A stretch of 63,347 bases of DNA, filler included. It is 9 parts of 9 records of this genome, joined end to end, with 100 filler letters (N's around TTAATTAATTAA, not from the genome) between each part and the next. Parts side by side here need not be neighbours in the genome. Positions count along the whole stretch, not along the records: positions 30,394 to 35,502 come from SRR31147125_18166; 8 more parts are not named here. One strand, 5' to 3'. Under the pieces are notes generated by a model, which was given only the letters and a program-made list of their open reading frames with translations, was not told the origin of the DNA and did no database searches. Made by a program: the position numbers and the translations under genes. This document shows positions 10,806 to 48,478 of this stretch, one piece after another (within the stretch, counting starts at the first letter, position 1; each line of letters starts with the position of its first letter).

Positions 10806-10966
10806 TGTCATTCCTGCGAAGGCAGGAATCCAGTGNNNNNNNNNNNNNNNNNNNNNNNNNNNNNNNNNNNNNNNNNNNNTTAATTAATTAANNNNNNNNN
10901 NNNNNNNNNNNNNNNNNNNNNNNNNNNNNNNNNNNCTAGATCCTCGGATCAAGTCCGAGGATGACG
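10806..10966. repeat. Palindromic REP-like element spanning the first gap
   Basis: Left GTCATTCCTGCGAAGGCAGGAATCCAG and right CTAGATCCTCGGATCAAGTCCGAGGATGAC look like two halves of one element, suggesting contigs 1 and 2 are adjacent. Confidence 0.65.
10836..10935. other. Artificial contig spacer
   Basis: N run with TTAATTAATTAA linker. Confidence 0.98.
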
Positions 10967-19661: not shown

Positions 19662-19761
19662 NNNNNNNNNNNNNNNNNNNNNNNNNNNNNNNNNNNNNNN
19701 NNNNNTTAATTAATTAANNNNNNNNNNNNNNNNNNNNNNNNNNNNNNNNNNNNNNNNNNNN
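19662..19761. other. Artificial contig spacer
   Basis: N run with TTAATTAATTAA linker. Confidence 0.98.
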
Positions 19762-24798
<5,037 letters not shown>

Positions 24799-24898
24799 NN
24801 NNNNNNNNNNNNNNNNNNNNNNNNNNNNNNNNNNNNNNNNNNTTAATTAATTAANNNNNNNNNNNNNNNNNNNNNNNNNNNNNNNNNNNNNNNNNNNN
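24799..24898. other. Artificial contig spacer
   Basis: N run with TTAATTAATTAA linker. Confidence 0.98.
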
Positions 24899-30293: not shown

Positions 30294-30393
30294 NNNNNNN
30301 NNNNNNNNNNNNNNNNNNNNNNNNNNNNNNNNNNNNNTTAATTAATTAANNNNNNNNNNNNNNNNNNNNNNNNNNNNNNNNNNNNNNNNNNNN
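30294..30393. other. Artificial contig spacer
   Basis: N run with TTAATTAATTAA linker. Confidence 0.98.
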
Positions 30394-31945
30394 TTCTTTT
30401 TGAACCCGTTCGAACGTCCATTTTCGATAGGATTTAGGGGGAGCATATGTTGGCAAACCTCGTCCATCCAGCCCTTCTCTCTTGCTACATTTGCTGCACC
30501 ACACGATTTTTTCGCAAATTCGGTTCGTGATTTGTGCCGCAAGGCTTCAGCCTTAAGTCTATCTTTGGTCCAATAACTACGAGGCTTTTTCACTGCTTCC
30601 ATATGACTACAAACCCCTTCCAACCAATCATTCTTCTTAGCCGTTGAATAAGCACCTGGATAATTAGCCCTAAAATCTTTCTTCGTAGTGTAATTCATAG
30701 CAACAGACAAAACCGAATCATAGTCCCAGTAATCAACGCTTCCGCCTAGCCCACCAAGAGCAAAGAAGCTATTTAGCATGGAGTAGCCCCATTTTTTATA
30801 AACGCCAAAATAATGCTTTTCTAATTCAACAGCTTCCTTTGCGGGAGGTAGTCCGTCAGCCGTATACTCTGAAGATCTCGGTTCTGGACAAGTTTAAATG
30901 TTGATTTGTTGTGCCCTGACATATGAGAGAGCATTCTTTTATCATAATCGAAAGTTAAGCCGACATAGGCCTCTTTGGCCGATTCTGAAACAAGTACATA
31001 GATACATCTGCTAAGCCTGTCTCCACACCTTCTCATGTGTGAGCAAACATCATTAAGCCAACTGTTTCTATGTGCTGCAGCATACGCATTCTTATTACCT
31101 AGATAGAAGTCCATGCGAGTTTCAAAGCGAAGAGCTATTTGCCGAACCCTATGTAGAGACCAATAGTTGGGAGGGCGAATGACTGAAACCATATGATTGC
31201 ATACATCATCCAGCCAATTATGGCGTTGGGCAGCTTGATAAGCATGTTTGTGTTTGCCATGGAACTCTTTTCTTGTTTTACAAAGGAGAGCTAAGGCATG
31301 AACCTCCTTCTTGGACCAATGATGATTTTGTTGAGCCATATGACTGCAAACTTCATCCAGCCACTGTTTATTCCTTGCTTTTGCATAGGCCGTAGGCTCC
31401 CCTATAGAGAATTCCTTCCTTGTCTTGAATTGCCTAGCTTTTTGATGAACAACTTCTTTTGTCCAATACCCATCGCGCCGTTTCATGTAACTCATATGTG
31501 AGCAGACATCCTGAAGCCAGCCATTTCTCTGTGCTGCCTGATAGGCATTCTTATATGCTTTGTTGAAATCCGAACGGGTTTGACACATGAGGGCTAATTT
31601 TTGAACTCTCCCCTTTGTCCAGTAACCTTTTGATACTCCTGGCCTCTTCATATGGACACAAACATCATCCAGCCACTGCCGACTTATCGCTTGCTTATAA
31701 GCAGTAGGGGCTTGCCTCCTAAAAGTTTCTCTACTGTTAAATTCCTTTGCTTTCTTATGAATAGCCTCTTTTGTCCAATCACTATTTAATTTTTTCATAT
31801 GAATGCAAGCAACTGTAAACCACCCATTTTTCTTCGCCGCAGCATACGCCCCAGGAGCATTATTATGAAAATCAGATTTTCGCTTGTACTTAAGAGCCTC
31901 CCGAATAACCCGTTCCTTGGTCCAAAAATTCCTTGGTCTACCCAT
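30394..31945 (-). CDS. GIY-YIG nuclease flanked by at least nine ~50-aa W-T-K...VCxHM repeats (one gene split by two apparent 1-nt slips; 3' truncated)
   Basis: Six repeats, then CIYVL...AYVGLT...KRMLSH. A frame change near 30845 gives AKEAVELEKHY...GYSMLN and joins the 30342-30779 ORF (repeats 7-8). A second change near 30445 gives RKWTFERVQKE (repeat 9). Confidence 0.8.
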
Positions 31946-32054
31946 CTCTCATATCACCAATACTCAACTTAACCACAGTTTAGACACTTTATAAGTTACG
32001 TCCCAATAGAGACGTAACTCATTGATTTATAGTTATCTCGAATTGAGGCCGAGT

Positions 32055-32285
32055 TTAGCGAGATCTCTCAATCAACAGCTTGATGCTATGCCAGAGTCGT
32101 TTATACCAAGGCACTCGTTCATAGATACGTTTGAGGGGTAAAAAAGATGGTACATGAGCTTCTGGGCAAGGCTCATCACGAACATTGGATTGCTCAGGTT
32201 CTAACTTGTCTTGCCGCATGCACTCCATTCTCTCCGATACATCGAGGATTTCGAAAGGGAGCTGAAGAGGCTCTTTTTCTTTCAT
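32055..32285 (-). CDS. Small hypothetical protein
   Basis: AAGGAG RBS upstream of the ATG; same strand as and upstream of the repeat nuclease; no recognisable motif. Confidence 0.45.
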   Translation of the reverse strand: MKEKEPLQLPFEILDVSERMECMRQDKLEPEQSNVRDEPCPEAHVPSFLPLKRIYERVPWYKRLWHSIKLLIERSR

Positions 32286-32756
32286 TTAGCACTCCTTTTA
32301 ACGCTGTCTGATCTCAGTTTAACTCAAAGAGATTTAGCTCCAAAAAGACTAAAAAAGACTATTTCAACACCCCTTGAAAAACCTAAAATCAAGTAAATTT
32401 GTGATAGTGTTCACTAACATCATTTTAAGCCCTGTGAAGGTGTTTTGGGACCTTCACCTACAGGCTAGATCCTGGCCGATAGAATCGCTCTCTGAACAAA
32501 CTTCCAACACGAAAAGGATAACAATAGATAACCTTAAACCCTCTTTAAACACACTTTCAACACATTCAGCGATAGCAAACACTAACCTATTTTTTGCTTT
32601 CCATCAGCTCACTATCTGGTGCCCCTACGTCAGATAGTCCTTCCCAAACATCGAGATTTCTAACTAAAAATTATATATTTCTTGCTCTTACCCGCTTTAC
32701 TGGTCAAAACAGTCGTTATAATAGCCCAAGCTTAGGACAAGCCTGTAGGAACTGAC

Positions 32757-35502
32757 ATGGCGTCAAACTTCGAATTCTTAGAGCAGCACGATCCAATATT
32801 TTTGCAGCTGGCGACGAGCGCTGAGAGGGTTTTCGCTGCCGATCCAAACACCACTCTTATTAAGCTACGGCAGTTTGCAGAGGCGCTAGCACAAGATATT
32901 GCGGTGCGCTGTGGTGTTCAGTTCGACAATCAAACAACCCAAGCGGATCTCATTCACCGTATTGATCGAGAATTACGGCTAGACCCTGCTGCACGACAGC
33001 TTTTCCATACATTGAGGATTGAAGGCAACAAAGCCACACATCAGTTCCGCACCAAACACAAAGAGGCTATGGATGGGCTGAAAGTGGCTCGGGCTCTTGC
33101 CATCTGGTTCCATCGGTCATTTTCATCGTCCGCTACTGCATTTAAGCCTGGTCCATTTATTCTTCCTGAAGATCCAAGTGAACACCTGCGCAAGTTACAG
33201 TCTGAAATCGCTAACCTTCGAACAGAGCTTGAAGATGCTAGTGAGCAACTCGATTCCAATCAGAAGCTCAACAACTTACTGGCTCAGGAAAAAGAAGAGT
33301 ACGAAGCCCTGGCCCATCAAATGGATGTCGAAGCCAGAAGCCTTGTGGAGCAGGCCAGATCTCATGAACAACAACTGACAGAACAACGACAGGAATTTGA
33401 AACCAAACTAGCCAAGTTACAACAACAACTGGCAGATAAAGCGCTTGCTGATACCAGCATCAAGCAAACAGCACAAAGGGTTAAGCAAGCGGCCGGCAAT
33501 ATTGAATTAAATGAAGAGCTCACTCGCATCATCATTGATCAACAGTTGGTGGAAGCCGGCTGGGAGGCAGACACCCAAGAGCTCACATACAAGAAAGGTG
33601 TTCGTCCAGAAAAAGGCCGTAATCTAGCCATTTCAGAATGGCCAACTCAAGGTAAACAGTCAGCCGATTACATCTTATTTGTCGATCTCACCCCTGTTGC
33701 GGTCGTAGAAGCCAAGCGGGTGAATACCAATGTCGCAGGCAAGATCACCCAGGCTGAGCGCTATGCCAAAAACATGAATATCAAAGCACCTATGCAAGGT
33801 GCATGGGAGCTCGAAGGACGCACAGTAGCCTGGGCCGATGATGCCGATGGCCATTACTTAGTGCCTTTCGTCTATTCTTGCAACGGCAGACCCTTTATCA
33901 AACAATTGAAAGAGCAGTCGGGTACTTGGTTTCGAGATGCTCGGGATGCCAGCAACACCAAGCAACCCTCCCCTCATTTCATTCACCTGCTGGCTTGATA
34001 GATAGACTCAAACGTAGCCGTCAGCAGGCAGAAACCAAATTGCAAAGCGAACCATTTGGCTATTTAAAACTGCGGAATTATCAGAAGAAAGCGATTCAAG
34101 CAACAGAGGCAGCGCTGGCTAACGATCAGCGAGAGTGTCTGTTGGCCATGGCAACCGGTACAGGTAAGACTCGTACCATCATTGGTCTGATTTACCGTTT
34201 TCTCAAAGCAGAGCGATTCAAGCGAGTTCTATTCTTAGTGGACAGAACCGCACTGGGTGAACAAGCACAAGATGCCTTTAAAGAAGCACCTCTGGAGCAA
34301 AACCAAACGCTGTCGAAAATTTATAATGTATCAGAGCTGGGTGACATGCAGGCCGAGGCTGAAACTCGCGTTCAGGTCGCTACCGTTCAGGCCATGGTCA
34401 AACGTATTTTCAGCTCAGATAACCCACCAACGGTTGATCAGTTTGATTGCATCATTGTGGATGAAGCCCACCGTGGTTACACCCTCGATCAGGAGATGAC
34501 AGAAGGCGAGCTAAGCACCCGAGATGCCAGTCAGTATCTGTCGGCATATCGTCGCGTTCTGGACTACTTTGATGCCGTCAAAGTCGGGTTAACGGCAACT
34601 CCCGCCAAGCACACAACTGAGATCTTCGGTAAGCCGGTTTACACCTATTCATATAGAGAAGCAGTGGCTGATGATTGGCTCATCGATCACGAATCCCCCA
34701 TTCGCTACGAAACCTTGCTGACCCAAAACGGCATTCAATTCACCAAAGGTGAGTCCGTTTCTGTGGTCAATACTCAAACGGGTGAACTTGACCTGGCTGA
34801 GCTGGATGACGATCTAAGTTTTGAGGTCGAAGCCTTTAACAAGCGCGTGATCAACGAATCTTTCAACCAAGTCATTTGCCAACAGTTAGCCCAGGAACTC
34901 GACCCGCTTGGCGATGAAAAGACCATGATCTTCTGCGCCACTGACCGCCACGCCGATATGGTAAAACGTCTGCTGGACCAATCCTTTAAGGACATTTATG
35001 GCAGTGAATACAACCAAGCAGCAGTTGAAAAAATTACTGGCCAGAGTGACAAGGTCAGCCAGTTAATCTCACGCTATAAGAATGAGCGCTACCCAAATAT
35101 TGCTATCACCGTCGACTTGCTCACCACGGGGATTGATGTACCTAAAATTTGCAACTTAGTATTCATGCGTAGGGTGCGCTCGAGGATCTTATACGAACAA
35201 ATGGTTGGCCGAGCCACCCGCCGTTGCGATGAGATCGGCAAGACAGTGTTCCGAATTTTCGACCCAGTTGATATCTACGCTGCTCTGCAAGATGTCTCTA
35301 CCATGAAGCCTTTGGTAAAAGATCCCAATGTGACTCTGGAGCAACTCGTGAACGAGCTGACCGATCCTGAGCAGCTAGAAAAAGCACTTGAAGCACCAGG
35401 AGCCCAAGAGGGCCAAAGCCACGCCGATGACGTACTCGATCAAGTCAGCCAAAAGGTCATGCGGATCTTACGCAAAGCCGATAAAAGAGCCGAAGACAAA
35501 CC
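32757..35502 (+). CDS. hsdR: Type I restriction endonuclease subunit R, EcoKI-like (frameshift near 33968; 3' truncated)
   Basis: N-terminal DUF4145-like domain and coiled coil, nuclease ADY...VVEAK, helicase MATGTGKT, DEAHRGY, GLTATP, LLTTGIDVP and QMVGRATR. Confidence 0.93.
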
Positions 35503-35602
35503 NNNNNNNNNNNNNNNNNNNNNNNNNNNNNNNNNNNNNNNNNNNNTTAATTAATTAANNNNNNNNNNNNNNNNNNNNNNNNNNNNNNNNNNNNNNNNNN
35601 NN
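35503..35602. other. Artificial contig spacer
   Basis: N run with TTAATTAATTAA linker. Confidence 0.98.
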
Positions 35603-41960: not shown

Positions 41961-42060
41961 NNNNNNNNNNNNNNNNNNNNNNNNNNNNNNNNNNNNNNNN
42001 NNNNTTAATTAATTAANNNNNNNNNNNNNNNNNNNNNNNNNNNNNNNNNNNNNNNNNNNN
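41961..42060. other. Artificial contig spacer
   Basis: N run with TTAATTAATTAA linker. Confidence 0.98.
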
Positions 42061-48378: not shown

Positions 48379-48478
48379 NNNNNNNNNNNNNNNNNNNNNN
48401 NNNNNNNNNNNNNNNNNNNNNNTTAATTAATTAANNNNNNNNNNNNNNNNNNNNNNNNNNNNNNNNNNNNNNNNNNNN
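48379..48478. other. Artificial contig spacer
   Basis: N run with TTAATTAATTAA linker. Confidence 0.98.

Follow-up and report, generated by a model that had tools for sequence, protein, structure and literature searches.

A GIY-YIG nuclease gene with arrays of a 43-residue helical repeat on both sides of the catalytic domain, a member of a very large, uncharacterised family

The stretch of DNA analysed here (the window, positions 1-63347) consists of nine contigs placed end to end and separated by linkers of the form N44-TTAATTAATTAA-N44. The G+C content of the pieces ranges from 33% to 52%; contigs that adjoin here need not do so in a genome, and more than one organism may be their source. 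The subject of this report is a GIY-YIG nuclease gene embedded in an array of helical repeats, which forms the left end of the 5,109-base piece 30394-35502 and is divergent from hsdR, a gene for a type I restriction subunit. The nuclease gene is intact, its catalytic domain resembles that of I-TevI, and its product is probably a homing-type endonuclease. The features of the locus are listed in Table 1.

Gene anatomy

Translation of the minus strand in three frames yields six repeats, then a GIY-YIG core, and after it two further repeats and the beginning of a ninth. The first six repeats are in frame from the start codon and are followed by the core with the motifs CIY, YVGLT and KR..H; ELE and LN lie beyond a frame change, and beyond a second one lies KWTFERVQKE, which reaches base 30394 (motif scan and translation). 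This is the arrangement that a first-pass annotation, made by a model from the letters of the window, had described, and translation, motif scan and profile search all bear it out; the six-residue strings around AY that it had listed were all found in the window repeats. The repeat core comprises 43 residues, and successive repeats start 49-52 residues apart (147 or 156 nt). The eight complete repeats are mutually 28-58% identical and share nine invariant columns: W1, A10, F19, A26, A30, W35, C40, H42 and M43. A hidden Markov model (HMM) of the repeat, built from 748 repeats of other proteins and none from the window, recovers exactly these eight (E 3e-16 to 6e-21) and matches nothing else in the 63-kb window (1,767 six-frame segments), so that the array lies far beyond chance. 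The repeats have diverged in DNA sequence, and Tandem Repeats Finder detected no array at the DNA level. The core is internal, at about residues 305-410 of the protein. Compared with P0001 and P0002, the closest relatives, the window protein contains one additional unit of two repeats: repeats 2-3 are similar to repeats 4-5, and the DNA repeats are 312 nt apart.

Base 30394 is a contig end, and the gene is therefore cut there, not finished. The assembly stops at this base owing to the repeat itself. The corresponding contig of the public run X1 ends there too, and a 180-nt unitig of X1 has the last 27-30 bases of this end at both of its own ends, from which it follows that the array goes on by at least one unit of about 150 nt. 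By analogy with P0001 and P0002, both of which have six repeats after the nuclease, the full protein probably has about six repeats there as well, which would make about 12 modules and roughly 700 residues.

Table 1. Features of the locus and linkers of the window.
Feature	Position	Strand	Remarks
Repeat-armed GIY-YIG nuclease gene	30394..31945	-	ATG at 31945; 3' end missing at contig end 30394
Repeat 1 (43 residues)	31796..31924	-	Repeat HMM E 3e-19
Repeat 2	31649..31777	-	Repeat HMM E 3e-16; 53% identical to repeat 4
Repeat 3	31493..31621	-	Repeat HMM E 6.4e-21; positional orthologue of repeat 3 of P0001 and P0002 (67% and 63%)
Repeat 4	31337..31465	-	Repeat HMM E 1.2e-19; 63% identical to repeat 2 of P0001
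Repeat 5	31190..31318	-	Repeat HMM E 1.2e-17; 58% identical to repeat 3
Repeat 6	31034..31162	-	Repeat HMM E 2e-17; 60% identical to repeat 4 of P0001 and of P0002
GIY-YIG core	30729..31033	-	In two frames in the window owing to the undercall at 30843-30845
Repeat 7	30600..30728	-	Repeat HMM E 7.4e-17
Repeat 8	30444..30572	-	Repeat HMM E 5.3e-20
Repeat 9, first 9 residues	30394..30420	-	Cut by contig end; matches the start of repeat 7 of P0001
Slip 1	30843..30845		GGG run (+ strand), one G short; X1 contig has an extra G behind 30842, depth 9.1
Slip 2	30437..30441		GGGGG run (+ strand), one G short; X1 contig has an extra G behind 30436
Spacer between nuclease gene and hsdR	31946..32756		811 bp, divergent genes on either side; no notable feature
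hsdR, type I restriction subunit gene	32757..35502	+	Cut by contig end; Pfam DUF4145, HSDR_N, ResIII, Helicase_C
Linkers	10836-10935, 19662-19761, 24799-24898, 30294-30393, 35503-35602, 41961-42060, 48379-48478, 58246-58345		

Integrity of the reading frame

The public run X1 contains 97% of the sampled words of the stretch, and its contigs were built independently. X1 is perhaps the source sample of the window itself, and is therefore taken as a second assembly, not as a second sample. Over positions 30394-35502 the X1 contigs differ from the window in three places only (30436, 30842 and 33965), with a depth of about 9 at each; run X2 gave no contig that matched there. Two of these are the slips of the nuclease gene. 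The third accounts for a frameshift in hsdR, an undercall of the same kind for which the X1 contig has an extra C behind 33965. With the added bases a single open frame extends over all 1,552 bases of the nuclease gene up to the contig end. The missing base is present in the X1 assembly at all three sites, and the split open reading frames (ORFs) are thus artefacts of assembly; the nuclease gene is intact. The first-pass annotation had held that the ORF track divides one gene through two slips, which is what the X1 contigs confirm. Further frameshifts of this assembly may likewise originate from undercalled homopolymers. In hsdR the frameshift splits the gene into the ORFs 32757-33998 and 33878-35554.

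Nuclease domain

All six catalytic residues (Tyr, Tyr, Arg, His, Glu and Asn) are retained, in the same order as in the relatives, and the core combines the GIY and YIG motifs with the Arg, His, Glu and Asn within about 100 residues that define the GIY-YIG superfamily. Pfam PF01541 is found on the first half of the core at E 0.001, with 19.8 bits against a cut-off of 22.6; the score is below the cut-off because the domain is split by the frameshift. Among seven intact relatives, six score 24-40 bits with the same model and one stays below the cut-off at 18.3. In a search of PDB sequences with the family profile, the best match is the I-TevI catalytic domain (1mk0, E 9.7e-5; 1ln0, E 3.5e-4). 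The AlphaFold model of P0002 also has its best structural match in I-TevI (probability 1.00, target template modelling (TM) score 0.59-0.67, root-mean-square deviation 2.8-3.3 Å over 83-92 columns), with UvrC ranking behind it. The NCBIfam model for group I intron endonucleases reaches only E 0.15. The nuclease is I-TevI-like in sequence and in predicted fold.

Size and architecture of the protein family

A word-indexed search with the 374-residue frame found 668 relatives. P0001 (624 residues) and P0002 (618 residues) are 54-56% identical to the window protein, and the names given to them go no further than 'GIY-YIG nuclease family protein'. A profile of the eight repeats, searched against 1.84 billion cluster representatives (clusters at 50% identity), matched 7,913, 5,463 and 2,050 of them at E 1e-3, 1e-10 and 1e-30, respectively, with up to 18 repeat matches in one protein among the matches listed. 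Purpose-built HMMs were used to examine 304 repeat-bearing relatives. Each has 3-18 repeats, and 268 of the 304 have the GIY domain of the family; the other 36 are without it, and some of these are repeat-only. The position of the nuclease within the array varies from 0:6 to 8:2 (repeats before and after it). The family is very large and uncharacterised.

The repeat module

The model of window repeats 1-3 has a predicted local distance difference test score (pLDDT) of 93.1 and a predicted TM score (pTM) of 0.57; the full model of P0002 has a pLDDT of 90.0 and a pTM of 0.38, with linkers of low confidence. In the models each bead consists of four helices (columns 3-10, 16-22, 24-32 and 36-39), and the array is predicted to be a flexible string of well-folded four-helix beads, not a rigid solenoid.

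The proteins are basic. The isoelectric point (pI) is 10.05 for the N-terminal part of the window protein, and the median for 120 relatives is 9.4. In a set of 307 repeat pairs, each from within a single protein and 60-98% identical, columns 17, 20, 24, 28 and 31 differ in 70-81% of the pairs; columns 21, 25, 29 and 32 come next, and scaffold columns differ in fewer than 10%. The variable columns are mostly polar or basic and map with helical spacing to one face of helices 2 and 3. A comparison of P0001 with P0002 gives 61% identity for repeats in corresponding positions and 42% for those in different positions; at the variable columns, 43 of 80 positional comparisons (54%) agree, as against 121 of 720 paralogous ones (17%). 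On these figures, from two proteins, each repeat position retains its own identity between orthologues.

The array also occurs with other catalytic heads. That of P0282 is of the HNH type, with 23.1 bits and above the cut-off; that of P0102 is a T5orf172 domain, whose 20.1 bits lie at the cut-off. P0230 has two segments resembling REase_MTES_1575, with 29.8 bits against a cut-off of 38.2. On these domain matches the array is portable among GIY-YIG, HNH, T5orf172 and restriction-endonuclease-like heads. In P0064 the place of the nuclease is taken by an insert of about 140 residues with a D..E.HG-type motif, which matched no family.

The basic character of the proteins, the variable face of helices 2 and 3, the positional identity of the repeats and the exchange of heads together point to nucleic-acid binding, and the modules probably grip DNA. 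The same observations lend indirect support to the earlier suggestion as far as it makes the array a modular DNA-binding part.

The repeat was matched by no family of Pfam, NCBIfam or PADLOC and by no PDB sequence; in PHROGs the only match was phrog_20046 ('unknown function'). Matches in BFVD were to uncharacterised family members only, and those in the ESM Atlas to unnamed clusters only (at 0.86-0.88), with none among the named clusters. A literature search of openly accessible papers found no description of the module, and it is not mentioned in the accessible passages of PMC3468402 and PMC1564403. The precomputed label PF26058.1 stands on 11 of 120 listed relatives; it is absent from the Pfam copy used, and a search with the accession found no paper. 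The module may thus already be catalogued under PF26058. Precomputed PF05265 labels on relatives were not reproduced at E <= 0.001.

Phage relatives

Matches were found in 26 phage records, which belong to jumbo phages of Vibrio, Rhizobium and Burkholderia and to one uncultured phage. The Rhizobium phage RHph_TM3_3_9 has three copies with three repeats each, one between the genes for dCMP deaminase and helicase and one on either side of the primase gene. Its sister RHph_Y5A, with 92% nucleotide identity in the flanks, has no repeat anywhere, and its deaminase-helicase junction is empty; in RHph_Y21 this junction is occupied by unrelated genes. All four metagenome loci of long or medium length are phage-like. 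One is surrounded by primase, exonuclease and SbcC-like genes, and in three of the four the gene adjoins phoH, with other homing-endonuclease genes nearby. Multiple copies in phages beside conserved replication genes, presence and absence between sister phages, and a patchy occurrence in cells without a constant partner (see below) form the signature of free-standing homing endonucleases.

On three different phage-like metagenome contigs (L040, L041 and L042) a short member with 1-2 repeats and a GIY-YIG head (phrog_3339, 'homing endonuclease') stands directly beside a phoH-like gene on the opposite strand, an adjacency that points to repeated insertion at one kind of site. A 106-kb contig (G001:C3) that is binned with a Cellvibrionaceae genome encodes at least three family members (L030-L032). 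This contig has the look of a large phage, with genes for gp30.3, an NAD-dependent ligase, a Dam-type methylase, IF3, PTH2 and an SbcC-like ATPase. Locus searches with P0002 returned distant loci only, and none in viral contigs; those with P0016 returned none.

Cellular copies and the neighbouring hsdR gene

The repeat is present in 6 of 201 species genomes of one bacterial family. The eight cellular loci have no common neighbour. Four copies (L047-L050) stand alone among housekeeping genes, three are in island-like settings, and the last (L035), a short remnant, has metabolic genes around it. A repeat HMM, proposed earlier as a way to survey copy number and neighbours, gave 3-18 repeats per protein in the 304 relatives.

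One of the island-like loci (L034) is a P4-like island with integrase and D5 primase. At another (L033; G004:C10, 7125-12415) a member of 569 residues stands beside an integrase fragment and genes for DUF6527, ThiF-type E1, Prok-E2_E and multiubiquitin proteins, a cluster that resembles a ubiquitin-like conjugation system in an island. The third (L046; G009:C26, 6776-11792) has tandem members with 6 and 7 repeats, and a T5orf172/MUG113 protein of 576 residues and a WYL-WCX regulator are encoded nearby.

The hsdR product of the window has a PADLOC REase_I match over positions 5-910 of 1170, and is 79-83% identical to the HsdR of about 1173 residues of marine Gammaproteobacteria. The contig is probably gammaproteobacterial on this resemblance, with the caveat that this type of hsdR is widely shared. 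The nuclease gene has a G+C content of 42.7%, and hsdR one of 48.7%. In a Pfam scan, type I subunits (hsdR, hsdM, hsdS) occur at none of the 11 other loci (eight cellular and three phage-like). The adjacency to hsdR looks incidental, without a shared system, and a link to the type I restriction gene is not supported. PADLOC-DB 2.0 (2023) has no defence family for either piece of the window protein or for P0002; P0016 has a stray match to PDC-S70 (E 0.0021).

Comparison with known systems

The window protein shares the I-TevI-type catalytic domain, with the same catalytic residues, with I-TevI, I-BmoI and the Seg enzymes of T4. As in I-TevI and the Seg enzymes, the build is modular and of the beads-on-a-string kind, the nuclease being tethered to separate (here putative) DNA-binding modules, and in the phage relatives the genes are likewise free-standing, placed beside replication genes and present or absent between sister phages. 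The DNA-binding part of I-TevI and the Seg enzymes is made up of zinc finger, NUMOD or helix-turn-helix (HTH) elements, whereas the family described here uses 1-18 copies of one 43-residue helical module. NUMOD, IENR and zinc-finger families were not found by Pfam in the window protein or in seven relatives. I-BmoI acts as a monomer and nicks sequentially, according to the accessible part of PMC3664794.

The T5orf172 homing endonucleases of ICP1-like vibriophages have repeated DNA-binding domains of the CapR zinc-finger type, as described in the available passages of Barth et al. 2023 (PMC10448857). On that description they and the present family both combine a head of the GIY-YIG superfamily with a variable number of independently folded, presumed DNA-binding domains, and P0102 even has a T5orf172 head. 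The accessible text of PMC10448857 also states that such enzymes change their repeat number by recombination; in the window protein a two-repeat unit is duplicated. The family differs in that arrays stand on both sides of the nuclease and in that the repeat is another domain: the CxxC...CxC motif, as defined in the part of PMC10448857 that was available, is absent from the eight window repeats and from the column profile of 748 family repeats. ICP1 is not named among the 26 matching phage records.

NUMOD DNA-binding modules are common to GIY-YIG, HNH and Vsr-like (EDxHD, I-Bth0305I) homing endonucleases, as far as the accessible passages of PMC3239194 go. Measured against that account, the present module is similar as a small unit that moves between unrelated nuclease heads, here GIY-YIG, T5orf172, HNH and REase_MTES_1575-like ones. 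It differs from NUMODs in the lack of a Pfam NUMOD match for the window module, in its much higher copy numbers and in that DNA binding is putative here.

TALE repeats are almost identical to one another: one or two code residues vary, and the repeats wind around DNA as a single continuous superhelix. Both kinds of protein have helical repeats in tandem in which the scaffold is fixed and a few surface positions vary, and in the present family the array is naturally joined to a nuclease. However, identity among the window repeats is only 28-58%, at least eight columns vary (17, 20, 21, 24, 25, 28, 29, 31, 32), and the models show loose beads (pTM 0.38-0.57) instead of one rigid superhelix. These three features do not fit a TALE-like programmable array, and the repeat-to-base code that the first-pass annotation had considered possible finds no support. 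Modular DNA-binding parts are familiar from homing endonucleases, and the type of enzyme is ordinary; the interest lies in the helical module, which is abundant and portable, is used on either side of the nuclease and may serve as a DNA-reading unit.

Proposed function and alternatives

The reading to which we give a fair measure of confidence is that the product of the gene is a DNA endonuclease which acts at specific sites as a self-contained single chain and belongs with the free-standing homing endonucleases. In the proposed mechanism an I-TevI-type GIY-YIG domain with one active site would sit between two flexible strings of 43-residue four-helix modules. The basic modules would line the DNA like beads, each adding a small number of contacts from the exposed surface of its helices 2 and 3, and the two arrays would jointly recognise a long target that extends to either side of the cut site and would hold the nuclease in place for nicking both strands. 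In phages such genes would spread into related genomes beside conserved replication genes, and the copy in the window would be a stray or resident copy of a mobile gene.

Several points weigh against this proposal. The window copy lies in a cellular-looking contig beside a defence gene, three of the cellular relatives are in islands, and the evidence for homing comes from phage relatives about 30% identical, not from the lineage of the window gene itself. The nuclease is internal, with arrays on both sides, whereas that of I-TevI is N-terminal, and no NUMOD-type module was detected in the window protein. DNA binding by the module is itself a prediction. Foldseek found no match of the module in the PDB at E <= 0.001, and in VIA-align (about 48,000 chains) the best Z was 3.3, the weak rows being a mixture of protein-binding FF domains and HTH domains. 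The statistic on positional orthology is based on two proteins only.

The first-pass annotation had left the choice between a defence nuclease and a homing endonuclease; the phage relatives favour the latter, and membership of a known defence family is not supported by the PADLOC result. An anti-phage nuclease tied to the type I restriction system, or placed with it in one island, whose array would recognise foreign DNA, is unlikely. Divergent adjacency to hsdR in the window and the island-like relatives L033, L034 and L046 are what such a role would lead one to expect, but hsdR, hsdM and hsdS are missing from all 11 other loci, where no neighbour recurs, and PADLOC has nothing for the window protein or P0002, and for P0016 the stray match only (E 0.002). 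Phages of lytic type themselves encode many copies, several per genome, and the four cellular copies L047-L050 have housekeeping genes alone for company. It is distinctly unlikely that the repeats bind protein, RNA, or single-stranded or modified nucleic acid in place of double-stranded DNA and deliver the nuclease to that ligand. FF-domain entries, which are peptide binders, make up 5 of 50 VIA-align rows (Z 2.4-3.2), and RNA-reading proteins that combine helical repeats with a nuclease exist, PPR rows being among the noise; all these structural matches, however, fall within the non-informative range of VIA-align. The strongly basic proteins, the exchange of the array among four DNA-nuclease heads typical of homing endonucleases, and the phage gene sites, which are those of homing endonuclease genes, also speak for DNA as the ligand.

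There is a slim chance that the window copy is a domesticated or idle remnant, i.e. a former homing gene that now serves as a DNA-binding regulator, or one that has not decayed and currently cuts nothing. The DNA-binding parts of homing endonucleases have been reused as repressors, as in CapR and in the autorepression by I-TevI (accessible part of PMC10448857). Within the family, 36 of the 304 proteins lack its GIY domain, some of them being repeat-only, and other copies are found alone among housekeeping genes. Against this, the window frame is intact over 1,552 bases and keeps six catalytic residues, and the repeat-only proteins may be fragments from short contigs. That the locus holds a pseudogene or two separate genes is highly improbable. 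The window sequence does show two frame changes in the nuclease gene and one in hsdR, but all three are one-base homopolymer deficits, the X1 contigs (a second assembly, as stated above) have the extra base at a depth of about 9 and no other difference, and the corrected halves of the core are colinear with the relatives without a missing residue. The two genes or pseudogene that the first-pass annotation had named as fatal to its proposal are thus the opposite of what was found.

Beyond the enzyme itself, a more far-reaching proposal concerns the module, which could be a new natural DNA-reading unit. Each bead would recognise a small number of base pairs by some 5-8 residues on the surface of helices 2 and 3 (columns 17, 20, 21, 24, 28, 29, 31 and 32 are assigned to this role), and combinations of 1-18 beads could retarget the head that they carry. 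The module would then be a zinc-finger-like, re-programmable scaffold already in natural use with GIY-YIG, T5orf172, HNH and restriction-type heads. This proposal is regarded as doubtful. The family in any case adds a very common helical module, present in thousands of clusters, which occurs in variable number, on both sides of the nuclease and with several nuclease types. Should the beads bind DNA in an additive way, the family would provide a natural scaffold of a monomeric nuclease, with targets that are long and can be adjusted. It would also account for many of the genes annotated as 'hypothetical' in bacterial islands and in large phages. For the window, the gene is to be read as whole, the frameshifts in the nuclease gene and in hsdR as assembly errors, and the hsdR neighbourhood is not to be taken as a system.

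Intergenic region

The spacer between the nuclease gene and hsdR has no match in Rfam, and in a promoter scan of it promoter-like sites were not more numerous than in shuffled sequences. It contains a hairpin at 31994-32019, with a 9-bp stem and an 8-nt loop, located 50-75 bases upstream of the nuclease start.

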